A stretch of 64,000 nucleotides of DNA from a virus: positions 32,001 to 96,000 of IMG/VR virus record IMGVR_UViG_3300046535_002009, one strand, 5' to 3'. The position numbers were made by a program, and so were the translations under genes. The notes beneath the pieces are model-generated. The model was given only the letters and a program-made list of their open reading frames with translations. It was not told where the DNA came from and made no database searches. How positions within the stretch are numbered: the stretch's first letter is position 1; each line of letters begins with the position of its first letter. Below are positions 3 through 53,314 of the stretch, piece by piece.

Positions 3-107
3 TTCGACTCTCCCGGCGTCCTGCCCGGCCGGCCCGACGAGAGCTCCGTCGAGAAGTGGCTCCACGCGGTTCGCGCCACCTACTACCGGCCGGAGGCCGA
101 CCGATGA
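3..107 (+). CDS. 3' end of an upstream gene, probably a predicted nucleotidyltransferase (Pol-beta superfamily); partial
   Basis: Frame reads FDSPGVLPGRPDESSVEKWLHAVRATYYRPEADR*; the LP..PD...VE.WL..VR tail resembles C-termini of this family; TGA overlaps the next ATG (ATGA). Confidence 0.5.
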   Translation, partial: FDSPGVLPGRPDESSVEKWLHAVRATYYRPEADR

Positions 108-1018
108 TCACCGTTCACCTCACCACCGGACTCCCCGCCTCCGGGAAGAGCACGCACGCACGGCACCTGGTCGCCGAGTCCGGCGGTCGCATGCGGCGCG
201 TCAACATGGACGACATCCGGGCCATGCTCGATGACCACGGCAGCGGCCGGGTCTGGAGCAGGGAGCACGAGAAGACCGCGCTCGCCGTCCAGGACGCGGC
301 GGTACTCGCCGCGGTGGCCGACGGCTTCGACGTCGTGGTCGACAACACCCACCTCACCACGCACATGCCCAGCCGCATCCGAGCGGCGCTCACCGGCCAG
401 GACGTCACCTTCGTCATCCACGACTTCACCCACGTCCCGCTCGAGGAGTGCCTGGCCCGGGACGCCGCCCGCCCGGCGCCGGTCGGCGAGGACGCGATCC
501 GCCGCCTGCACCAGCGCCTCCAGTCCGCCCGCAAGAGCGGCTGGAAGCTCACCGCGGAGTGGATGTCCGGCCGGCTCCCCGTCGAGCCGTACACGCCGCT
601 TCCCGGCCTCCCGCCGGCGGTCCTCTGCGACATCGACGGCACTCTGGCCCTGCACGTCTCCCGCGGCCCGTACGACTTCGAGCGGTGCGGCGAGGACGCG
701 CTGAACACCGCGGTCAGCGACACCGTGGACCTGTTTCGCGACGCCGGCCACCGCATCGTCCTCATGTCCGGGCGCAGCGAGGAGTTCCGGCCCCAGACCG
801 AGGCCTGGCTCGCCAAGCAGGACGTCGCCTACGACGAGCTGTGGATGCGCGCCACCGGCGATGTCCGCCGCGACGACGTGGTGAAGCTGCAGCTGTTCAA
901 CACCCACGTCCGCGACCGGTACCAGGTCGTCCTCAGCCTCGACGACCGCGACCGCGTCGTCGCCCTCTGGCGGACGCTCGGCATCCCGACCTTCCAGGTC
1001 AACTACGGCAACTTCTAG
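104..1018 (+). CDS. pseT: Polynucleotide 5'-kinase/3'-phosphatase (T4 PseT-like)
   Basis: N-terminal P-loop GLPASGKST, VVVDNT; C-terminal HAD DIDGTL, SGR, DDR..VV..WR..G. Confidence 0.9.
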   Translation: MITVHLTTGLPASGKSTHARHLVAESGGRMRRVNMDDIRAMLDDHGSGRVWSREHEKTALAVQDAAVLAAVADGFDVVVDNTHLTTHMPSRIRAALTGQDVTFVIHDFTHVPLEECLARDAARPAPVGEDAIRRLHQRLQSARKSGWKLTAEWMSGRLPVEPYTPLPGLPPAVLCDIDGTLALHVSRGPYDFERCGEDALNTAVSDTVDLFRDAGHRIVLMSGRSEEFRPQTEAWLAKQDVAYDELWMRATGDVRRDDVVKLQLFNTHVRDRYQVVLSLDDRDRVVALWRTLGIPTFQVNYGNF

Positions 1019-1025
1019 GAGCAGC

Positions 1026-1934
1026 GTGTCCCGCGTCTACTTCCGCTCCCCGTCGGGCTGCGCTGAGCTCCACGGCAGCGAGCGTGCCCGGCTCGGCGGC
1101 ATCGCCAACGACATCGCCATCGGAGCGCTCCACCTCGACGACCACCACATCATCGAGCGCCTGCAGCAGCTCATCCCCGACGGGCACTTCATGACCCGCC
1201 AGCACCCCAGAGGGCCGGATTGGGCCCTCACCTGGGCCGACAGCTTCCGAACGGCCCTGCTGGTCAACTTCGGCCAGACCCCGCTCATCGCCTACCGCGG
1301 CCAGGAGGTCGACGCCTTCGACCTCGTGCTGAACAGCGCCCTGGCGCTCGGCAACGACGCGGTCAGGCTCGGGGTCCGGATTCACGGCCAGTGCGAGATC
1401 CACGGGTGGGTCGACGGCTCGAACCGGGCTTGGCTCGCCGACATCATGCAGGCCGGACTCGATGCGGGTATCTACCGGCACGGCTTCTGGCGCGAGCCGC
1501 TGCCGGGCAGTACCGCCCCGCGGCAGTGGCTGAGCCAGGGCTGGGACGAGGTGATCGAGTTCCTGCGAGCCCAGGACGACGAGCCGGTCGTCATGTCGTA
1601 CTCGGTGACTGACGGCTTCCCCAACGAGATGGTCGGCGACTGGATGCCTCCTTGGCCTGCTGACGTCCCGAAGAAGCTCGGCTGGGACGGACTGAGCGAG
1701 GAGCAGCAGACGGAGCGACAGACCCGGGCGGACGCCTGGTGGGAGCTCGACGACGCCGAGCAGTGGCGGATCTCCATGGCCGGGCTGCGGCAGCACGGCG
1801 GCGGCCGGGAGCTGCGCCCCGGCAACTGGCAGGAGTTCCGGTTCGGCCACCGCCTGTCGGTGCTGGACCTGGTGGCCCAGGACTGGGAGGACCGCCTCGC
1901 ACGGGCCCTGGGTCTTGTGGCTACCGCAAGTTGA
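1026..1934 (+). CDS. Hypothetical protein
   Basis: 302-aa ORF with AGGAG RBS and GC-rich third codon positions. Confidence 0.75.
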   Translation: MSRVYFRSPSGCAELHGSERARLGGIANDIAIGALHLDDHHIIERLQQLIPDGHFMTRQHPRGPDWALTWADSFRTALLVNFGQTPLIAYRGQEVDAFDLVLNSALALGNDAVRLGVRIHGQCEIHGWVDGSNRAWLADIMQAGLDAGIYRHGFWREPLPGSTAPRQWLSQGWDEVIEFLRAQDDEPVVMSYSVTDGFPNEMVGDWMPPWPADVPKKLGWDGLSEEQQTERQTRADAWWELDDAEQWRISMAGLRQHGGGRELRPGNWQEFRFGHRLSVLDLVAQDWEDRLARALGLVATAS

Positions 1935-2032
1935 TCGGTCTCGCCTGCTGGCCAGTCGTATCCCCGAACCCGCGGCCGGCGACTCCTCGCCGGTCTACGC
2001 TGACCCCGGGTGTGCCTGGGAGGAGAGAAGTG

Positions 2033-2566
2033 ATGTACCAGATGCGTGAGGCGACGGCCTCCGACGCCAGGCCGATCGCCGAGATGGTGCGGGCCCGCTC
2101 CGCATGGCTGTCCGCGCGTGGGCTGGGCGAGTGCGCGGACATGGCCGACGAGTACGGCTCGCAGGCGGGGAACCCGGCGTTCCCCGTGTGGGTGCTGGAG
2201 CACGAGACGGACGGAGTCGTCGGCTGCACGTCCACCTTCGGCAACGAGGCGCTGCCCCCGTTCGCGTTCAGCGAGGAGGAGCGCGCCGAGCCGACGCTGT
2301 TCCTCGCCACGACGTTCACCGTGCCCAACCCGCACCGCCTCGGCCGGCTGATCGCCTGGTGGGCGCTGAACCGGGCCGCCGAACAGGGCCTCGCATGGGT
2401 TCGCCGCGGGACCGGCCAGGAGCAGCTCGCCCGCTACTACCAGGAGGCGCAGGGCTGGGAGCTGCTGCGCGTCGTGGATCGGCGCGGGGCGAAGGTCTTC
2501 TTTCTGCAGCGCGAGGCCGCTGCGGTGCCGGAGCTGGCCGACCTGATGGCCGGCCGCGGCCTGTAG
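2033..2566 (+). CDS. GNAT-family acetyltransferase
   Basis: MREATASDARPI start, WVLE..GVVGC, RLGRLI..WA, LARYY...GW; AGGAGAG RBS. Confidence 0.75.
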   Translation: MYQMREATASDARPIAEMVRARSAWLSARGLGECADMADEYGSQAGNPAFPVWVLEHETDGVVGCTSTFGNEALPPFAFSEEERAEPTLFLATTFTVPNPHRLGRLIAWWALNRAAEQGLAWVRRGTGQEQLARYYQEAQGWELLRVVDRRGAKVFFLQREAAAVPELADLMAGRGL

Positions 2567-2568
2567 CG

Positions 2569-2617
2569 ACACGCCGAGGGCCCGCAGCAGAGCGACTGCT
2601 GCGGGCCCTCGGCGTGT
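2569..2617. terminator. Bidirectional terminator hairpin
   Basis: Perfect 22-bp stem ACACGCCGAGGGCCCGCAGCAG / CTGCTGCGGGCCCTCGGCGTGT with 5-nt loop between convergent genes. Confidence 0.85.
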
Positions 2618-4198
2618 TCAGCGGCGGGTGAGTGCGGAGTCCGCCAGTAGTGCGAAGACGACTTCGTGGTCGCCTGCGGCCGGGGTGCCGTCCTCCAGCC
2701 GGTCGGCGACCTGGCCGAGGCCGTCGGGGTTCAGCAGCCGGGCGTCGATCAGCGGGGAGCCGTCGGCCAGGATTCGGCGGATGCGGGGCACACCGTGGCG
2801 GCGCATGGCCTCGGTGATGATCTGCTGAAAGTTCTCCACGATCGGCGGCCGGGCGACCTGAGGCGGCATGCCCGTGCGGGCGATGATCACCCGGAGCACC
2901 TGCTTGTCCCGCCGCCATTCCAGGGGAAGCCACTCGCAGAACCGGACAAGCGCCGGATCGGTGAGCGGGTGGGCCGGCCACAGACCGTGGCGCAGGAACG
3001 CCGGGCCGCAGACCGCCTTCGCCATCAGCGCGGTCTCGGGGACGACCGCGGCCGGGGTGATCGCCGTGTCAATGTCCGGCAGGAGGGCCTGGGCGGCGGT
3101 GCCCAGCCACGGCGGAGTGCTGGTCGGCTCGAACCCTCCCCAGCCGCCGGTGTCCTCGGCCGCGGTGGTGGCCATCAGCTCGTCTCCGCCGATGCCCGTG
3201 AACACGGCCCTGATTCCCGCCTGGGAGAACCGGCCCGAGAGGGTGTCGAGGGCATCCGCGTAGATGTCCGTGGTCGGGGAGACCCATACCGGCCGACTGA
3301 ACCGGGAGACCGGCCCGTACGGCAGGTGGTCGGCGGCCTGCACGGCCAGGCTCGACCAGCCGGACGCGATGTGGTCCAGGAGCAGCTGTCGCCGATCGGA
3401 CTGCTGGGCGCCGCGTTCGGCGTCGAGGATGACCGTCCCGGCGGTCACGCCGGCCCCCTGCGGGGCGGTACGCATGGCCAGGGCGACCGTCGTGGAGTCC
3501 ATCCCGCCGGACAGCTGCACCGCGGTCTTGGAGCCGGTCCACGGCAGGCGCGTGACGGCCCGCTCCAGCAGGTCGGCGAACAGCGGGATCGGGTCCATGC
3601 CCTGCTGGAGCGACCGTGCCCGGCTGTGCTCCGCGGGAGCAGGGAACTGGATGGCGAGCGCCCCGTCCACTCCGAAGTGGGCTGTTGCCCGCTCGGTGAG
3701 GAGCCGGACGTCCTGCCAGAAGGTCGCCGCCGAGTACCGGGCGCGCAGGGCGAGGTGGCGGGTGATGGCGAGATGGTCGAGCCGGTCCGGGCGCTGCTGG
3801 TCGCGGAGGTTCATCAGGTCCCACGAGCCGTACAGGACACTGCCGTCGGCGGCCAGGTACTGCGGGGCGGTGCACGCGGTGCCGGTCGTGACCTGGACGG
3901 CCCGGCCGGGTTCGACATGGACGGCAGTCCAGTCGTCGTGGAGCTCGTGCAGCTCGCGGACGGCCTTGTCGTAGGCGCCAGCCGAGACGGTGGCCACCTC
4001 GGGCCGGCCCGGGCGCTCGCCGCTGCGCCTGGCGGACGAGGTGAACAGAGTGCGGGTGCCGTCGGTGAGGGCGGTCTGCTCGGTCAGGACGTGGCGGTAC
4101 GGCTCGATCCAGGACGTCCCGCACTGCCAGCGGCTGGCGCACCAGGCCCAGGTCCGGCCGGGGAGGTTGTCGTCGTGGGTGATGCGGAGGTCGAACAT
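2618..4198 (-). CDS. Asparagine-synthetase-like ATP-dependent ligase (lasso-cyclase-like)
   Basis: PP-loop LSGGMDS, FTGIGGDEL, HPLTDP..V.F, DKQVLR; no N-terminal catalytic Cys of glutaminase-active AsnB; GAAGGG RBS. Confidence 0.85.
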   Translation of the reverse strand: MFDLRITHDDNLPGRTWAWCASRWQCGTSWIEPYRHVLTEQTALTDGTRTLFTSSARRSGERPGRPEVATVSAGAYDKAVRELHELHDDWTAVHVEPGRAVQVTTGTACTAPQYLAADGSVLYGSWDLMNLRDQQRPDRLDHLAITRHLALRARYSAATFWQDVRLLTERATAHFGVDGALAIQFPAPAEHSRARSLQQGMDPIPLFADLLERAVTRLPWTGSKTAVQLSGGMDSTTVALAMRTAPQGAGVTAGTVILDAERGAQQSDRRQLLLDHIASGWSSLAVQAADHLPYGPVSRFSRPVWVSPTTDIYADALDTLSGRFSQAGIRAVFTGIGGDELMATTAAEDTGGWGGFEPTSTPPWLGTAAQALLPDIDTAITPAAVVPETALMAKAVCGPAFLRHGLWPAHPLTDPALVRFCEWLPLEWRRDKQVLRVIIARTGMPPQVARPPIVENFQQIITEAMRRHGVPRIRRILADGSPLIDARLLNPDGLGQVADRLEDGTPAAGDHEVVFALLADSALTRR

Positions 4199-4239
4199 CA
4201 GCTGTCGGCCCTTCGTGCGCCGGTGAGGGTGGACGCGGC

Positions 4240-4270
4240 CCGGCCGCAGCGGACGTGCCGCTGCGGCCGG
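4240..4270. terminator. Intercistronic hairpin between peptide gene and cyclase gene
   Basis: 13-bp stem CCGGCCGCAGCGG / CCGCTGCGGCCGG, 5-nt loop. Confidence 0.65.
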
Positions 4271-4281
4271 ACGAGGGACTG

Positions 4282-4440
4282 TCAGACAGCCGTGGTGTCG
4301 TACGTCTGGACCGAGTCGCTGGACCCGGCGATCTTCTTGTACGAGTACCGGTCGGTGGTGTCCATGACCTCGTACGCCGGCTCGTCGCCGAAGATCCGGC
4401 CGGCGGCCTCCAGCAGCATGCGCTCGTCGGTGATGATCAC
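4282..4440 (-). CDS. Putative RiPP precursor peptide, 52 aa (not in the ORF track)
   Basis: MIITDERMLLEAAGRIFGDEPAYEVMDTTDRYSYKKIAGSSDSVQTYDTTAV; GAAGGGA RBS before GTG; almost all third positions G/C; directly upstream of the cyclase-like gene. Confidence 0.75.
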   Translation of the reverse strand: MIITDERMLLEAAGRIFGDEPAYEVMDTTDRYSYKKIAGSSDSVQTYDTTAV

Positions 4441-4706
4441 GGGCCTGTTCCCTTCACCTGGGCTTGGACGGCCCCCTCGCCAGGTCGGTAAGGGGGCCCG
4501 GCACCAGCCGGTTGCCGGTGTCGGCGCCGGCCCGGGGTGTGCCTCTGGCTGGCCGGCGCACCATCAGGTAACCGCTCGGGTCGCGCGTGCGGCAGGGCTC
4601 CGAGGCCAATCTGCAAACGGCATGCAGAACACGCACACGCTGTGCGCGGCCCGTCGCTCCGGGTGTACCGTCAGGACTGTTGCCACACTCCCGAGTTGGA
4701 GGACAG

Positions 4707-6059
4707 ATGGCGGTGCCCACGGCCGGGGGCCGGGAGATCGGAGCAGTGATCCGGGGCGCCCGGGCAGAAGCCCGGATGACGCAGCAAGACCTCGGAGAGA
4801 AGTGCGGATACTCCGCGTCCACGATGAGTCGCGTCGAGGCCGGCACGCTCCGGCCGACCCCGGAGACCCTGCTGCGCATCGCCGAGGCCCTGGACCTGCC
4901 ACCGCAGCGCCTGGGCATCGTCCCGGTACCGGCGCAGCGGCGCGCCTCCCCGAGCTGCTCCCCCGCGGCCGGTCCGGCGGCTAGGGTGGCCAACGGTGTG
5001 ATGCAGGCTCAGCAGGAGGTCCCAGTGCGACGTAGAGAACTGCTGGCTGGCATGGCGGGCACCGCGGCCGCCGCCATCATCCCCACCCCCGCAGCGGCAG
5101 CAACCGCCTCGACATCGGACGACGACCTGGCCGCCGCACTGGAGCGCGCCCTGTACGCCCCGGACGCCATCGGACCGGCGCCGGCGGCCGTCGTGGAGCA
5201 GCACCTGGCCGCCGCCCGGGGCGACTTCACCGCGGCCCGCTACGGCCGCCTCGGTCAGGCCCTGCCCGGACTCATCGGCGCCGCCGAGGCCGGCCGCGAC
5301 GCATCGGCTGGCGCCGCCCGCGAGCGCGCGCACTCCACCGTCGCCCGCGCGTACGTCCTCGCGACCGAGCTCGCCGTGAAGCAGCACTCCGACATCGCCT
5401 GGGTCGCCGCCGACCGAGCGCTGGCCTCGGCCCGCGCCGGCGGCAGCCCGGTCGTGATCGGCGAGGCGGCCCGGGTGCTGGCCATCACCATGCGCCGCTC
5501 CGGACGGCCCGCCGCAGCCGTCGACCTGCTGCGCCGCACCGCCGCAGACCTTGCCGACCAGCGTGGCGCCGCACCGCAGGCTGTCGCAGCGACCCTGATG
5601 TTCACCGCGGCGTACACCGCCGCGTGCGACCGGCGCCGCAGCGACGCCCTCGACCTCATGGCCGGTGCCGACGAGGCGATCCGTCGGCTCCCGGCCGACA
5701 CGCCTGCAGCGCCGCTGTTCACCGTTGACGCGACTGCGGCGCAGCGCGACCTCTACTGGATCGGCGTGCACAACGCCCTCGGTACACCGGACGAGGGCGT
5801 GCCCTACGCCGCGCGCCTCACTGCCGTGGCGCTGCCGACCGCCGAGCGCCGCGCCCGCCTCGGCACCGACACCGCCCGCATGTGGCACCAGCTCGGCGAC
5901 CAGCGCCGCACCTTCACTGCGCTGCGCCTCGTCGAGCAGGCCGCCCCGGAAGAGGCGCGGCGGCCGGCGCTGCGCGCGCTGACCGCCGACCTTCTCTACT
6001 CACCCGCCCCGCTGCCGGGGGTGAGGGAGTTCGCCCGCAGGACCGGCGCGGCCTCCTGA
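4707..6059 (+). CDS. XRE-family HTH regulator with long helical C-terminal domain
   Basis: IRGARAEARMTQQDLGEKCGYSASTMSRVEAG; GGAGG RBS; divergent from the peptide gene. Confidence 0.85.
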   Translation: MAVPTAGGREIGAVIRGARAEARMTQQDLGEKCGYSASTMSRVEAGTLRPTPETLLRIAEALDLPPQRLGIVPVPAQRRASPSCSPAAGPAARVANGVMQAQQEVPVRRRELLAGMAGTAAAAIIPTPAAAATASTSDDDLAAALERALYAPDAIGPAPAAVVEQHLAAARGDFTAARYGRLGQALPGLIGAAEAGRDASAGAARERAHSTVARAYVLATELAVKQHSDIAWVAADRALASARAGGSPVVIGEAARVLAITMRRSGRPAAAVDLLRRTAADLADQRGAAPQAVAATLMFTAAYTAACDRRRSDALDLMAGADEAIRRLPADTPAAPLFTVDATAAQRDLYWIGVHNALGTPDEGVPYAARLTAVALPTAERRARLGTDTARMWHQLGDQRRTFTALRLVEQAAPEEARRPALRALTADLLYSPAPLPGVREFARRTGAAS

Positions 6060-6952
6060 GCGCGCGGGGCCGGCACTGCCCCGAGCTCCCGATCGTCCCG
6101 TTTCGACTCGAAGTAGCGCAGCTGGGTGCTCTCGACATGGACTCGGGTGGGCGGCCAGGACTCGTGGTGCTGGTTCCGCATCGCATGCCGGAACCGCCAG
6201 CCGCCGTCCTCGTCCGGGATCGGCTCAAGGCCGTTGCATGCGACGAGGACCCGGACCGATCCGAAGACCCCCTCGTCGTGACCATCGTCCCAGCGGACGG
6301 CCGCCTCCAGGTCTACAGTTCCGGGACCGCCAGCCTCGCGTTCCTCGTGCTGGCGAATCCAGTCGGACAGCGGCCGGTATGCCTCGAACTCCAGGGTCTC
6401 GCTCTGGCCGGTCTCCAGGGTCAGTGTCAGAGGTTCCCTGGTGAAGGTGGCATGAGGGCCGTCAGGAGCGAACTGGCCAGTGACGTTCACCGTGGCGTCC
6501 GGCCCAAGGTTTTTGATCGTGAAGGAGTAGCGCAGGCCGGCAAGCACGTTGCGGTCGCGCGGCGTCCGGTAGACATGGTCCCTTTCGAGCGGCATGCCAG
6601 GCGCATTCGCGGCGATGCCGATCCGCAACGGCCTGAAATCCAGGCTCGACTGCGTGACTTGGATGTGCGGGGCACGGGCGGCGAGCCGGGCCTTGGCCGC
6701 ATCCACCGCCCCGCGCTCGGCCACGGCCAGTGCATCCTGCGCGATGCGATTCGCCTGCTCGCTCAGCTCATTGGCTTGCCTGGCGAGCTCGTTCGCGCCG
6801 TCGCTACGAGCGTTCGCCTGCTCGGCGGTGACGTTGGCGCGTTCGCTGTTCCGGTTGGCCCTCCGGGCGGTGTGGTGCTGGGCGATCGCCCAGATCCAAC
6901 TGCCCGCTGCTGCTGTCGCGGAGGCGAGGGCGATCTTGTCCGAGGTGTTCAT
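5996..6952 (-). CDS. Hypothetical protein with N-terminal hydrophobic anchor and coiled coil
   Basis: IALASATAAAGSWIWAIA followed by AN-rich heptads; TACGGT -10-like hexamer 6 nt before ATG. Confidence 0.65.
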   Translation of the reverse strand: MNTSDKIALASATAAAGSWIWAIAQHHTARRANRNSERANVTAEQANARSDGANELARQANELSEQANRIAQDALAVAERGAVDAAKARLAARAPHIQVTQSSLDFRPLRIGIAANAPGMPLERDHVYRTPRDRNVLAGLRYSFTIKNLGPDATVNVTGQFAPDGPHATFTREPLTLTLETGQSETLEFEAYRPLSDWIRQHEEREAGGPGTVDLEAAVRWDDGHDEGVFGSVRVLVACNGLEPIPDEDGGWRFRHAMRNQHHESWPPTRVHVESTQLRYFESKRDDRELGAVPAPRAQEAAPVLRANSLTPGSGAGE

Positions 6953-12944: not shown

Positions 12945-13403
12945 ATGAGTCCCCTCGTCGACGACAGCCAGCGGATCATCGACGCCATCGCCTGCGGCGC
13001 CTCCGGGGACCGGCCGGGCGCCCTGGCCCACCTGAAGCCGATCATCGACCGCGGCCCCGGCGCCATCTTCGCCATGCTCCACGCCCTGGCCAACGTCGCA
13101 GTGGTCGAGCAGAAGCCGGAGACCGGAACGTTCCTCGGCATCGCCGTCGAGACCACGGACGGGCACGCTGCGAGCATCGACCAACTCCCGGCCGGGCACC
13201 GGTTCGCCGCGCAGTTCACCACCGCGGTCGCGAACGACGACCTGGACCAGGCCGACGCCCTCTACCGCGCGCTGCTCGTCGGTGACGACTTCCACGCCGC
13301 CACCGGCTTGGCCGAAGGGATCGGCGCCGTCTACGACATGGCCGTCGCCACGACCGTCGCCATGGTCGAGCTGGCCCGGCAGCGGAAGCGGGGCCAGCAG
13401 TGA
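12945..13403 (+). CDS. Hypothetical phage protein
   Basis: AAGGAG RBS before ATG at 12945. Confidence 0.65.
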   Translation: MSPLVDDSQRIIDAIACGASGDRPGALAHLKPIIDRGPGAIFAMLHALANVAVVEQKPETGTFLGIAVETTDGHAASIDQLPAGHRFAAQFTTAVANDDLDQADALYRALLVGDDFHAATGLAEGIGAVYDMAVATTVAMVELARQRKRGQQ

Positions 13404-14212
13404 GCAGCGACACCACGGCGCTCGGCGACCGCATGAAGCGCTACGAGGCGCCGTACCGGGCCCTGTTGCCGCGCCGCACGTACACCGTGCTGCGGGTCGA
13501 CGGCCGCGCGTTCCACACGTACCTCAGGGGCGCCGTGCGGCCCTTCGACGAGGCTTTCGCCGCGGACATGGATGCCGTTGCCGCGGCGATGTGCAAGGAG
13601 ATCACGGGCGCATTCCTGGCCTACGTCCAGTCCGACGAGATCAGCATCGTCGCCGCGGACTTCCGCTCGACCAGCACCGAGCCGTGGTTCGGCGGGGTCG
13701 TCGCGAAGTGGACGAGCATCGGCGCAGCAATCGCCACGGCCGAGTTGAACGCCCGCCGGCCGGGCCGCCGTGCCCTGTTCGATGCCCGGGTCTTCACGCT
13801 GTCCGACCCGGTGGAGGTCGCCAACTACCTGGTGTGGCGGCAGCGGGACGCAACCCGGAACAGCATCGTCATGGCCGGGCAGGCGCACTTCCCGCACCGA
13901 TCCCTCCACGGGCAGGACACCGGGCAGATCCAGGAACGGCTGTGGGCTGAGCGGGGCGTGAACTGGAACCGCTACCCGGACGGCTTCAAGCGTGGCCGGG
14001 TCGCCACCCGCGTCGTCGGCTTCCGCGACAGCGAGCACCCCGAACGGGGGCGCGCGCCGCGGTCATGGTGGGCAGCGGAACCGGCACCGGTCTTCATCGC
14101 CGAGCCGGGCAGCTGGCTCGCCCGGACGATCCCCACCCTGCCCACGCTCGCACCGGCGCCGCCCTGCGGCGTCGGCCACTCGCTGGCACCGCACCAGTCC
14201 GCCCCGGCCTGA
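13400..14212 (+). CDS. thg1: Thg1-like tRNA(His) guanylyltransferase / 3'-5' RNA polymerase
   Basis: GDRMKRYE, LRVDGRAFHTY, YVQSDEIS, FDARVF, NYLVWRQRDATRNSI. Confidence 0.92.
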   Translation: MSSDTTALGDRMKRYEAPYRALLPRRTYTVLRVDGRAFHTYLRGAVRPFDEAFAADMDAVAAAMCKEITGAFLAYVQSDEISIVAADFRSTSTEPWFGGVVAKWTSIGAAIATAELNARRPGRRALFDARVFTLSDPVEVANYLVWRQRDATRNSIVMAGQAHFPHRSLHGQDTGQIQERLWAERGVNWNRYPDGFKRGRVATRVVGFRDSEHPERGRAPRSWWAAEPAPVFIAEPGSWLARTIPTLPTLAPAPPCGVGHSLAPHQSAPA

Positions 14213-51781: not shown

Positions 51782-53314
51782 CTACGTCGCGACGGGCTCC
51801 AGGACCTTGGGCCACTCCTCGAACCCAGGCTGCCCGAAGAAGATCAGGTTCACCCGGGGCCCAACCGGCTGGCCGTGACCCTTCCTCAACGCCGGCAAGA
51901 CCTCGACCCGCAGGACCTTGCGGATGACGTGGCGCTTCTGCTCAAGGACGAGCTCCTCCTCGTCGTTCCACATCTCGTCCAGCGCATCCGGATCCATCCC
52001 GATGAGACGGTCCAGCAGCGGGTCACCCACCGACAGAAGCCCCTTCACGATGGCCTCGGACGCCCGGGCCAGCGGGATCAGCCGCTGCTCCAGCTCGGCG
52101 AGCGAGGCGACGGTCAGGCCGGGCAGGCCGGTCACCGGGTCGAACTCGGTCGCCCGCGCCCGCGCGTCTCGGAGCTGCTCGGTGATCGCCTTCAGCTTGG
52201 CCCGCTCCCGTTCCAGTTCACCGCTCGACGCCTGTCGGCGCATCGCCGCGGCTGCCTTCTCGGAGGACAGCCACTGCAGCAGGGCCTCCTCGACGTAGGC
52301 CTCCAGGAGCTGCTTCATGATGGACAAGTGCTCCACGCGGCACCGGTAGAGCGCGCCACGGCGGTACTTGGGCTGTGCCAGCCGCACCGTCATCGTGCTG
52401 TTGCGGATGTCCACGTCGGCACGGCAGAGCGAGCAGAGCGCGATCCCGGACAGCAGGTGCTCGACGCCGGTCGTGTGGGTCGTCCTGCGGTCCGGGTCGT
52501 CGAGCATCCGCTGGACACGCCAGAAGACGTCCTCGTCGACGAGCCCCTTCCAGGCAGCCGGATACTCGGTGTCGTGGTGGACTCGGATCCCGATGTACGC
52601 CCTGTTCTGCAGGATCGCGCGGATGCCCTGGTCCGTCATCAGCGGGCGGCGGGGCAGCATGAAGGCGACGAGGCGCTTGATGGAGATCTTCTGGTCCGCC
52701 ATGTTGAACAGCTTGACGAGTACGGGCGCTTCGTCCGGGTGGGCGACCTGCCCGAGAAGTTCGCCAGTGTCCGGGTCATAGACCCGCTTGAAGCCGAAAG
52801 GCGGGGTGCCGGTCATCCAGCCCCGCTGGGCGCTGAGGCGTGCGGTCCGGACGTTGCGGGCGATGATCGTGTCGCCCTCGCCCTCGGACTCCACGGCGTC
52901 CCGGGCGGTCTCGCGCCGGTCGGATGCCTTGGTGAGGTCGTAGACCCGGCCGTCGTAGCACCAGAGGACGCCGGTCTCCATGCACAGCGCGCGGAGCCTC
53001 ACGTACCCGTCGAGCGTGCGGTTCGTGCGGGACCTCTCGGCGTACACGATCACGTCGATTTTGCCCGCGCGGACGTCTTCGACCATACGCTCGTACTCGT
53101 CACGGACCTTCGTGGCGCGACTGCTTGCCGAACGGTCGCGGTCCTCGTAGAAGTCGACAATCTCCCAGCCGCGCTCGTTGCACTCGGCGCGGCACTCGGC
53201 GAACTGGTCCTTGATGGATCGTCCGCGGTAGCGCGGGTCTCGAGATGCCCGACCATACACAGCGGCCCGCAGCGGGCGAGTCGCCTGCGCGGGCACCGAG
53301 TACAGGTAGTTCAT
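51782..53314 (-). CDS. int: Large serine recombinase (integrase)
   Basis: YGRASRD catalytic Ser, S...Q...C, D..RSAS, SRTNR, G.PPFGF, N.AYIG, LLSG...C..C zinc ribbon, coiled coil. Confidence 0.93.
   Translation of the reverse strand: MNYLYSVPAQATRPLRAAVYGRASRDPRYRGRSIKDQFAECRAECNERGWEIVDFYEDRDRSASSRATKVRDEYERMVEDVRAGKIDVIVYAERSRTNRTLDGYVRLRALCMETGVLWCYDGRVYDLTKASDRRETARDAVESEGEGDTIIARNVRTARLSAQRGWMTGTPPFGFKRVYDPDTGELLGQVAHPDEAPVLVKLFNMADQKISIKRLVAFMLPRRPLMTDQGIRAILQNRAYIGIRVHHDTEYPAAWKGLVDEDVFWRVQRMLDDPDRRTTHTTGVEHLLSGIALCSLCRADVDIRNSTMTVRLAQPKYRRGALYRCRVEHLSIMKQLLEAYVEEALLQWLSSEKAAAAMRRQASSGELERERAKLKAITEQLRDARARATEFDPVTGLPGLTVASLAELEQRLIPLARASEAIVKGLLSVGDPLLDRLIGMDPDALDEMWNDEEELVLEQKRHVIRKVLRVEVLPALRKGHGQPVGPRVNLIFFGQPGFEEWPKVLEPVAT

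Follow-up and report, generated by a model that had tools for sequence, protein, structure and literature searches.

What is made by a gene pair that encodes a 52-residue peptide and an enzyme resembling asparagine synthetase (AS), when the pair is carried by a phage and lacks the partner proteins of lasso-peptide biosynthesis? The question is raised by a locus in a 64,000-nucleotide stretch of viral DNA, i.e., bases 32001-96000 of the 110,060-bp IMG/VR record IMGVR_UViG_3300046535_002009, which is referred to below as the window and in whose coordinates positions are given. An initial annotation of this DNA had described the locus as a cassette for a peptide that is made by the ribosome and modified after translation (RiPP), encoded without the RiPP recognition element (RRE, also named B1) and the leader peptidase (B2). 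We infer that the adjacent AS-like ligase acts on the 52-residue peptide and that the two form a minimal RiPP-like system. The reaction is probably an ATP-dependent closure of a macrolactam through an isopeptide bond between Lys36 and Asp42, combined with acetylation of Lys35 by a GNAT-type acetyltransferase. The elements of the cassette are the following:

2033-2566, plus strand: GNAT-fold acetyltransferase of 177 amino acids (aa), assigned with AlphaFold2 (AF2), Foldseek and phrog_38266; an accessory of the actinobacterial sub-branch
2567-2617, no strand assigned: bidirectional terminator hairpin common to the GNAT and ligase genes, from folding
2618-4198, minus strand: AS-like ATP-dependent amide ligase of 526 aa with two domains and no N-terminal Cys (PF00733)
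4209-4214, minus strand: ribosome-binding site (RBS) of the ligase, GAAGGG, from the sequence; ACGAAGG is conserved in the spacers of relatives
4238-4272, minus strand: intercistronic stem-loop after the peptide stop codon, an attenuator or mRNA stabilizer, from folding and covariation
4282-4440, minus strand: precursor-like peptide of 52 aa with a GTG start codon, from the sequence and homologues
4448-4455, minus strand: RBS of the peptide, GAAGGGAA, 7 nt before the GTG
4441-4706, no strand assigned: presumed divergent promoter/operator region that separates the regulator gene from the peptide operon, assigned by position
4707-6059, plus strand: XRE-type helix-turn-helix (HTH) regulator of ~450 aa with an alternative GTG start at 4587 (Pfam HTH_31/HTH_3, phrog_5823)

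The peptide gene with its own RBS, which the initial annotation had placed at 4440-4282, is present, and GAAGGGAA is kept 7-9 nt 5' of the start codon in each of seven close relatives (7/7). Judged by its sequence, the open reading frame (ORF) is real, because its codon changes are in many cases biased toward synonymous ones and because the same 52-aa protein is called by NCBI, where it appears as a "hypothetical protein" in 10 clusters. In comparisons with close relatives, synonymous changes are at least as frequent as nonsynonymous changes (11 vs 3 for Streptomyces (S.) rubellomurinus, locus L003), a pattern that points to purifying selection. Neither the peptide nor the 177-aa protein has a Pfam match at E <= 0.01. 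About 39 of 45 loci, representing two phyla, have a short ORF directly 5' of the ligase gene, with 11-157 nt between its end and the start of the ligase; it is present at almost all loci for which sufficient 5' sequence is available. The taxa that carry it include Kitasatospora/Streptomyces, Actinomadura, Micromonosporaceae, Pseudonocardiaceae and one further actinobacterium, in addition to more than 20 metagenome contigs of proteobacterial type. The initial proposal hinged on homologues of the ligase having a conserved upstream peptide, and such a peptide was found across actinobacterial lineages and a large proteobacterial branch.

The upstream peptides fall into about 10 families with almost no common sequence. 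When the C-terminal 30 residues from each of 35 distinct peptides were aligned with MAFFT without anchoring, only two columns of these cores were invariant, one Lys and one Asp, arranged as K-x5-D in 31 peptides and as K-x6-D in four. Mining of the upstream ORFs of homologues for conserved Lys and Asp positions, as had been suggested, therefore returned one residue of each kind. In the window peptide these are K36 (4333-4335) and D42 (4315-4317), preceded by a leader (residues 1-34) and an extra Lys (K35) and followed by a 10-residue tail. The initial annotation had focused on the last Asp of the peptide; an Asp acceptor is retained in the present interpretation, but the key residue is D42, with its 10 following residues, and not the last Asp, D48. 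The residue that precedes the invariant Asp is usually small (G, S, A or T), and in two loci (L049 and L053) the core has just one K and one D, separated by exactly the family spacing. The joint chance of finding the K/D pair in 15 representative cores was estimated from composition shuffles to be ~8e-11, a rough figure because the peptides are partly dependent.

Most actinobacterial cores, and most of those from the main proteobacterial branch, have a hydrophobic-aromatic pair (Phi-F/Y) 17-21 residues before the invariant Lys; the pair is missing in the L045-type branch and in L041. In the window peptide this pair is I16-F17, and it looks like a leader recognition motif. Two loci deviate from the one-core arrangement. 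In L022 (G304:C90, reverse strand) the precursor ORF ends 9 nt before the ligase gene and contains the family leader motif S-E-L-F-A-E-E-P, after which come three ~26-aa tandem repeats, each with A-K-V-(S/P)-P-A-R-D (i.e., K-x5-D) and with no tail after the last one. By its repeat structure, L022 is a multi-core version of the system, and multi-core precursors are typical of RiPPs. In L050, a metagenome contig, two tandem diverged precursor genes precede one ligase gene (at about 720-1064), both with R-K-P-S-G-x-x-D cores. Co-location of the two genes, the conserved leader-core layout and the repeated core lend support to the tentative assignment of the system as a RiPP.

The initial annotation had also described the enzyme as AS-like and lacking the glutaminase Cys. 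This description agrees with the match of the ligase to Pfam Asn_synthase (PF00733, 1.4e-13) and with its N terminus, which reads M-F-D here vs M-C-G in AsnB; position 2 is occupied by F, L or I in 19 of 19 homologues, while the AsnB paralogues of the same genomes begin with MCGI, which includes the catalytic Cys2. Two motifs, SGGxDS (S230, G232, D234, S235) and GxGGDE (G335, G337, G338, D339, E340), are invariant in the 19 aligned, diverse homologues and, together with the two-domain AsnB fold, place the family in the AS-like PP-loop superfamily. The AF2 model of the ligase (predicted local distance difference test score, pLDDT, 92; predicted template-modeling score, pTM, 0.91) contains both AsnB domains, and in the N-domain (residues 1-190) the pLDDT is >90. 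In a Foldseek search the nearest structures were beta-lactam synthetase (beta-LS) and carbapenam synthetase (CarA) (E 1e-17 to 1e-13), followed by TsnB9 and asparagine synthetases, with a probability of 1.0 for beta-LS, CarA, ASNS and AsnB. The sole sequence match of the ligase profile in the PDB was also beta-lactam synthetase.

Within this superfamily, the ligase scored far below the cut-offs of the established families, i.e., 30.8 bits for AsnB (TIGR01536, cut-off 267), 20.4 bits for the lasso cyclase model (NF033535, cut-off 525) and 30.3 bits for the "albusnodin/ikarugamycin macrolactam cyclase" model (NF033561, cut-off 300). A genuine neighboring lasso cyclase scored 230 bits on NF033561. 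Assignment as AsnB proper was rejected on the basis of the TIGR01536 score and the missing N-terminal Cys. A maximum-likelihood tree was built from 29 family members, seven AsnB sequences and three lasso-cyclase-type proteins, one of which adjoins PqqD and B2 genes and is therefore a genuine lasso cyclase. The 29 members form a group with 100% support, separate from AsnB and from the lasso cyclases, of which only the three were sampled. At 50% identity the family, which occurs in Actinomycetota and Pseudomonadota, comprises 619 clusters when E <= 1e-3 is required and 161 when the limit is E <= 1e-30. Database homologues include the Kitasatospora protein P0002 (88% identical), and Luteibacter and Cupriavidus genomes are also represented. 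The family is sparse: it was found in four of 401 evenly sampled actinobacterial genomes and in none of an even sample of 401 Pseudomonadota genomes, and the proteobacterial branch is known solely from protein databases and metagenome contigs.

The two closest structural matches, beta-lactam and carbapenam synthetase, are glutaminase-dead and close an intramolecular amide after adenylation of their substrate. In the mechanism that we propose, the ligase would bind the leader through the conserved aromatic motif (I16-F17), which lies ~19 residues before the core, and would use its PP-loop motif SGGxDS together with GxGGDE to adenylate the side-chain carboxylate of Asp42 with ATP. Because no glutaminase Cys is present to supply ammonia, the epsilon-amine of Lys36 would attack the acyl-adenylate, and the product would be a seven-residue Lys-to-Asp isopeptide macrolactam (-18 Da) that carries the 10-residue tail. 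A nucleophile supplied by a side chain, rather than by the N terminus, would require neither leader cleavage by a B2 peptidase nor an RRE (B1), which would explain the absence of both. The initial annotation had left open whether the product is a Lys-Asp macrolactam or an amidated peptide. The first option is favored by the finding that K and D are the sole invariant columns of the 35 cores, and the second becomes less likely with the glutaminase nucleophile missing.

An alternative explanation is that the ligase activates the invariant Asp or the C terminus and couples it to an external amine, e.g., ammonia, hydroxylamine, hydrazine, a polyamine or an amino acid, and that Lys serves for recognition only. 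Such chemistry has precedents, since TsrC, ScdTA, PesC and FzmA amidate, nitrilate or hydrazidate carboxylates (PMC13060819, PMC13622209), and TsnB9 is found among the structural neighbors of the ligase. However, the glutaminase Cys is lacking in all 19 aligned members, amidation of Asp would be pointless since Asn can be encoded genetically, and the fixed K-to-D spacing would be left unexplained. Moreover, the C-terminal residue (V, I, D, G, A or S) and the length of the tail (6-15 residues, including bulky ones) vary across the cores, and no amine-supplying gene is conserved nearby. An external amine is for these reasons considered unlikely.

The claim that no B genes are found in the window could be extended to the whole 110-kb record, in which neither PF13471 (B2) nor PF05402 (RRE/B1) has a match. 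As a positive control, the same models identified adjacent B1 and B2 genes in S. rubellomurinus, within a canonical lasso cluster, with 4.7e-26 for PF13471 (G001:C372, beside the lasso cyclase) and 3.4e-14 for PF05402. Neither model matched the cassette-bearing Actinomadura genome, and the neighborhoods of ~40 homologues contain no conserved B1/B2, protease, transporter or other enzyme; the possibility raised earlier, i.e., that homologues might always carry B1/B2, was checked, and none do. The expected features of a lasso precursor are missing as well, in line with the first description of this peptide: there is no YxxPxL leader, no Thr at position -2 and no conserved residue before the invariant Lys, at which K, R, P, M, T or L is found.

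These observations also bear on a non-canonical lasso peptide, in which an unlinked protease would cut before the invariant Lys, the alpha-amine of the resulting Lys1 would be joined to Asp7 or Asp8, and the tail would be threaded. A ring of seven to eight residues fits those of lasso peptides, as do tails of 6-15 residues with bulky side chains; the enzyme belongs to the same superfamily as lasso cyclases, and biosynthesis without B proteins is known for triculamin (PMC12070363). Against this explanation, no B1/B2 is found in the record or beside any homologue, a conserved cleavage context before Lys (including Thr at -2) is missing, and an alpha-amine nucleophile offers no reason for an invariant Lys. 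In addition, the family is separate from lasso cyclases in the tree and reaches 20 bits against the lasso cut-off of 525, and the triculamin route is inapplicable because here the conserved core occupies the C-terminal part of the peptide and the ligase has an entire N-domain. A lasso of this kind is thus rather improbable, and the Lys36-Asp42 macrolactam remains the preferred interpretation.

The 177-aa protein, described initially as a convergent GNAT, is a GNAT judged by its predicted fold and has no significant Pfam match itself. Its AF2 model has a pLDDT of 93.2, and the best 50 of at least 500 PDB matches found with Foldseek (E <= 0.001) are all GNATs, with template-modeling (TM) scores of 0.6-0.67. 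Evidence from sequence is weaker, with two of eight homologues matching Acetyltransf_6/_1 (best 2.2e-6). The gene is linked to the ligase in 16 loci; it is found at every Kitasatospora/Streptomyces locus, in Actinomadura, in G286 and at the metagenome locus L046. Every GNAT-linked core contains a second Lys at position -1 or +1 relative to the invariant Lys (K35 in the window peptide), and in peptides from loci that lack the GNAT this place is taken by R, P, M, T or L, L051 being the one exception. L050 is the sole GNAT-less, peptide-bearing lineage inside the GNAT clade, and it has Arg at this position. The earlier suggestion that the GNAT acts on the peptide is strengthened by the fold and by the co-occurring extra Lys, and the pattern is suggestive of acetylation of that Lys. 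In lasso systems, AlbT, TriT and GelT acetylate a Lys of the product, and TriT and GelT confer self-resistance (PMC12070363, PMC13178200). By analogy, acetylation of K35 in the actinobacterial sub-branch may be a tailoring step or may provide self-protection, as for TriT, AlbT and GelT.

The organization of the transcripts was also as first described. The hairpin between the peptide and ligase genes maps to 4238-4272; the 86-nt spacer that contains it folds with -46.3 kcal/mol (z -2.75) and a stem of 13-15 bp. This stem is retained in eight related loci despite sequence change, with compensatory double changes at seven of 17 pairs. It would keep the message of the peptide in excess over that of the enzyme. 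At the other end of the ligase gene, the proposed terminator common to GNAT and ligase is a perfect 21-bp hairpin between the two stop codons (-54.6 kcal/mol, z -8.87), as good as which none of 200 shuffles was found. A sigma-70 scan of 4441-4706 gave no match, which is expected for a high-GC actinomycete; scans for sigma-70 and intrinsic-terminator consensus sequences are uninformative in this DNA.

The divergent XRE regulator is identified by its match to Pfam HTH_31 (1.8e-13; also HTH_3), and phrog_5823 aligns to its residues 126-447. The C-terminal domain is long and helical and possibly resembles tetratricopeptide repeats (TPR), for which the Atlas gave no more than a lead. Orthologues occupy the same position in L001, L008, L009, L012 and L015. 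In the proposed scheme this protein would control the operon. The proteobacterial form of the system consists of the peptide and ligase genes only and lacks the regulator; the actinobacterial form adds the 177-aa gene and the divergent gene for the ~450-aa HTH regulator.

Several observations weigh against the macrolactam interpretation. Conservation of K and D reflects constraint and not a bond between Lys and Asp. A few ligase loci (L009, L024, L040 and L042) have no adjacent peptide; these loci may be decaying, or their enzyme may act on a peptide encoded elsewhere. As regards the individual loci, the gap between regulator and ligase in L009 (Kitasatospora sp. NPDC058115) is only 55 nt, and L024, a second copy in S. 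rubellomurinus (G001:C74), comes after an Old-Yellow-Enzyme-like gene. Furthermore, the proteobacterial two-gene form has neither a conserved exporter nor a conserved immunity gene, which would be odd for a secreted antibiotic. Finally, the GNAT-positive ligases form essentially one clade, such that the correlation between Lys and GNAT rests on ~2 evolutionary events.

The missing exporter leads to a third explanation, in which the cassette does not produce a natural product. The small protein would instead be a regulator, inhibitor or adaptor of the ligase, or a Pup-like tag attached via Asp42 to lysines of other proteins, in a phage-host conflict or stress system, and the XRE/TPR-like regulator may sense the peptide in the manner of RRNPP proteins. 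Consistent with such a role, neither an exporter nor a protease is conserved, the regulator combines an HTH with a long helical domain, and the cassette is phage-borne and present in PHROGs. The peptide-ligase pair also adjoins dnaE in three distant actinobacterial lineages, i.e., L011 (a metagenome-assembled genome (MAG) of Micromonosporaceae), L013 (a Pseudonocardiaceae MAG) and L095 (a high-GC IMG/VR contig), a position that speaks for a stable role in the cell; the shared gene order may reflect long vertical retention. Between two of these three loci dnaE is 55% identical. On the other hand, PADLOC found no defense-system match in the cassette except for a generic HTH, on which ground a known defense system was rejected. 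The invariant internal K/D pair at fixed spacing, the leader-core layout and the repeats of L022 are better explained by an intramolecular modification than by tagging, a signal sequence that would allow export and re-import of the RRNPP type is missing from the peptide, and the regulator is missing from the proteobacterial form. A role outside natural-product biosynthesis therefore appears doubtful, as compared with an intramolecular Lys-Asp linkage.

How does the cassette relate to known systems? With lasso systems it shares a glutaminase-dead, ATP-dependent enzyme of the AS superfamily and, as predicted here, a seven- to eight-residue isopeptide ring closed on an Asp side chain. The order of precursor, stem-loop and enzyme, and an associated GNAT that probably acts on Lys, are also found in systems of the lasso/triculamin/albusnodin type (PMC12070363, PMC13178200). 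In contrast to lasso peptides, where the N-terminal alpha-amine is the nucleophile, the epsilon-amine of Lys is the predicted nucleophile here. The cassette is also without B1/B2, Thr-2 and the YxxPxL leader, removal of its leader would be unnecessary, and its ligase belongs to a separate group that fails both lasso NCBIfam models. A canonical lasso cluster was rejected, because B1, B2, the cyclase score and the features of the precursor (Thr-2, a small core residue 1 and Asp/Glu at 7-9) were all missing; here, the Asp is found 6-7 residues after the invariant Lys. In systems of the triculamin type the precursor carries a follower instead of a leader and the cyclase is N-truncated, whereas the peptide in the window has a 34-residue leader and a C-terminal core, and the ligase has a full N-domain. 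Of the components specific to that type, only the GNAT is shared, with 177 aa here vs 296 aa for TriT (PMC12070363). A triculamin-type cluster was rejected on account of the leader and the complete N-domain.

The proposed linkage is reminiscent of graspetides (omega-ester peptides, e.g., microviridin and plesiocin), which would share with the cassette a Lys-to-Asp/Glu side-chain macrolactam, a leader-core peptide with an aromatic leader motif, multi-repeat cores (cf. L022) and minimal clusters of precursor and ligase, sometimes with a GNAT. The difference is found in the enzyme: graspetide ligases are of the ATP-grasp type and proceed via an acyl-phosphate, while the ligase here is an AS-like, adenylating PP-loop enzyme. 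No ATP-grasp domain was found by Pfam among the four cassette proteins, and the proteobacterial two-gene form has the AS-like enzyme only; an ATP-grasp graspetide cluster was accordingly rejected. Beta-lactam and carbapenam synthetase, the closest solved structures, share the two-domain AsnB fold, the dead glutaminase domain and formation of an intramolecular amide after adenylation, but act on small molecules to form four-membered lactams and are 13-18% identical in sequence to the ligase. TsrC, ScdTA, PesC and FzmA are likewise AS-like, and the reactions that they carry out on ribosomal peptides do not yield a lasso (PMC13060819, PMC13622209), but they use the C-terminal carboxylate and an external nitrogen donor, some of them with RRE fusions, while here the C terminus is unconserved and the internal K/D pair is conserved. 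Because each of the known families failed a tested defining feature, the cassette is not a lasso, triculamin-type, graspetide or AsnB system, and we file it as a putative RiPP-type macrocyclization system with a lasso-type enzyme and a graspetide-type linkage.

To date, four reactions have been credited to AS-like RiPP enzymes, i.e., lasso cyclization, C-terminal amidation (TsrC, ScdTA) and formation of a nitrile (PesC) or a hydrazide (FzmA), and two surveys from 2026 mention ~300 uncharacterized AS-like candidates but no Lys-Asp cyclase (PMC13060819, PMC13622209). In these surveys AS-like enzymes that co-occur with known RiPP elements were selected (PMC13622209, PMC13060819), such that a family whose only partner is an unannotated ORF of 40-55 aa would slip through. 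No publication on the family was found in the full-text literature, the coverage of which excludes most subscription journals. If the proposed linkage is correct, a Lys-to-Asp side-chain cyclase would represent a fifth reaction for AS-like RiPP enzymes, it would connect lasso peptides (AS-like enzyme, ring of seven to eight residues) with graspetides (side-chain lactam), and it would constitute a two-gene, protease-free form of peptide stapling. The 161 clusters at E<1e-30 are sufficient for a systematic study, and the conserved K and D offer a sharp and inexpensive test. We tentatively suggest that the system may represent a new RiPP class, in which an AS-like enzyme ties Lys to Asp(+6) without a peptidase or RRE and in which the tail is perhaps threaded to form a "side-chain lasso". 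Such a class may be widespread and overlooked in soil Actinomycetota and Pseudomonadota and may travel as phage cargo, its product being released at lysis or used in the lysogen for exclusion or competition.

The phage setting was the remaining element of the initial description, and the cassette is indeed found inside a temperate phage record. The record is 90% complete according to CheckV. PHROGs matches identify the major head protein, the portal and the large terminase at 3-9 kb and the tape-measure protein near 105-109 kb of the record. Head genes are located at the start of the record (1-17 kb; L092) and tail genes at its end (96-110 kb; L094), all on the minus strand. This placement at opposite ends suggests a circularly permuted genome, and the ~110-kb record looks like the circularly permuted assembly of a complete temperate phage. 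A large serine integrase is encoded in the middle of the record (window 51782-53314), and the window also encodes HNH endonucleases, helicases, a Thg1-like enzyme and Pnkp. The cassette is well inside a real temperate actinophage.

When a Kitasatospora chromosome contig was compared with the DNA of the record, 85% identity was found over window positions 1990-6052 and none outside this interval. The four genes are thus a discrete module of 4.06 kb, and different genes flank it in every genome compared. In the window the flanking genes encode proteins of 318 aa (5996-6952, minus strand) and 302 aa (1026-1934, plus strand), with no match in Pfam, PHROGs or PADLOC and no homologue in the related loci. 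In PHROGs, the ligase matches phrog_29141 (2.8e-110) and the 177-aa protein phrog_38266 (3.3e-44), both annotated as of unknown function, and the regulator matches phrog_5823; from these matches it follows that the module is already present in (pro)phage data, without a name. The ligase had no tblastn match in 50,697 GenBank phages, and megablast of the first 12 kb returned HNH endonuclease fragments only. Scans of IMG/VR for further carriers yielded a single viral contig, L095, the cassette of which adjoins the host gene dnaE; that end of the contig is probably host DNA, i.e., a host flank rather than a second phage carrier.

We propose that the module is a self-contained, horizontally acquired phage cargo. 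Its ecological role may lie in competition, anti-phage exclusion or signaling, all of which are possible; anti-phage activity has been reported for actinobacterial RiPPs (bioRxiv 10.1101/2024.06.26.600839). With its location in a 110-kb actinophage and its presence in PHROGs, the module becomes a further candidate next to the few peptide natural products that phages carry (bioRxiv 10.1101/2020.10.01.322628).

Two of the related loci differ in their arrangement. In L014 (Kitasatospora sp. NPDC048540, ~5500-6310) the ligase is reduced to its last ~100 codons, right after the 3' end of a tyrosine-integrase gene, while the GNAT and regulator genes are complete; the ligase gene may have been the insertion site of an integrating element. 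In L007 (Kitasatospora sp. CB01950) the orientation of the GNAT gene is opposite to that in the other loci, such that it lies co-directionally 3' of the ligase gene, the match of which begins at residue 66, and the 5' region of this ligase gene may have been rearranged. In the phage itself, a set of genes resembling an RNA-repair system is found beside the cassette (window 56-1018, 13400-14212 and neighbors), which comprises a Thg1-like tRNA-His guanylyltransferase (phrog_4717, 4.9e-69) together with a Pnkp kinase-phosphatase (HAD_PNKP, 1.4e-49).

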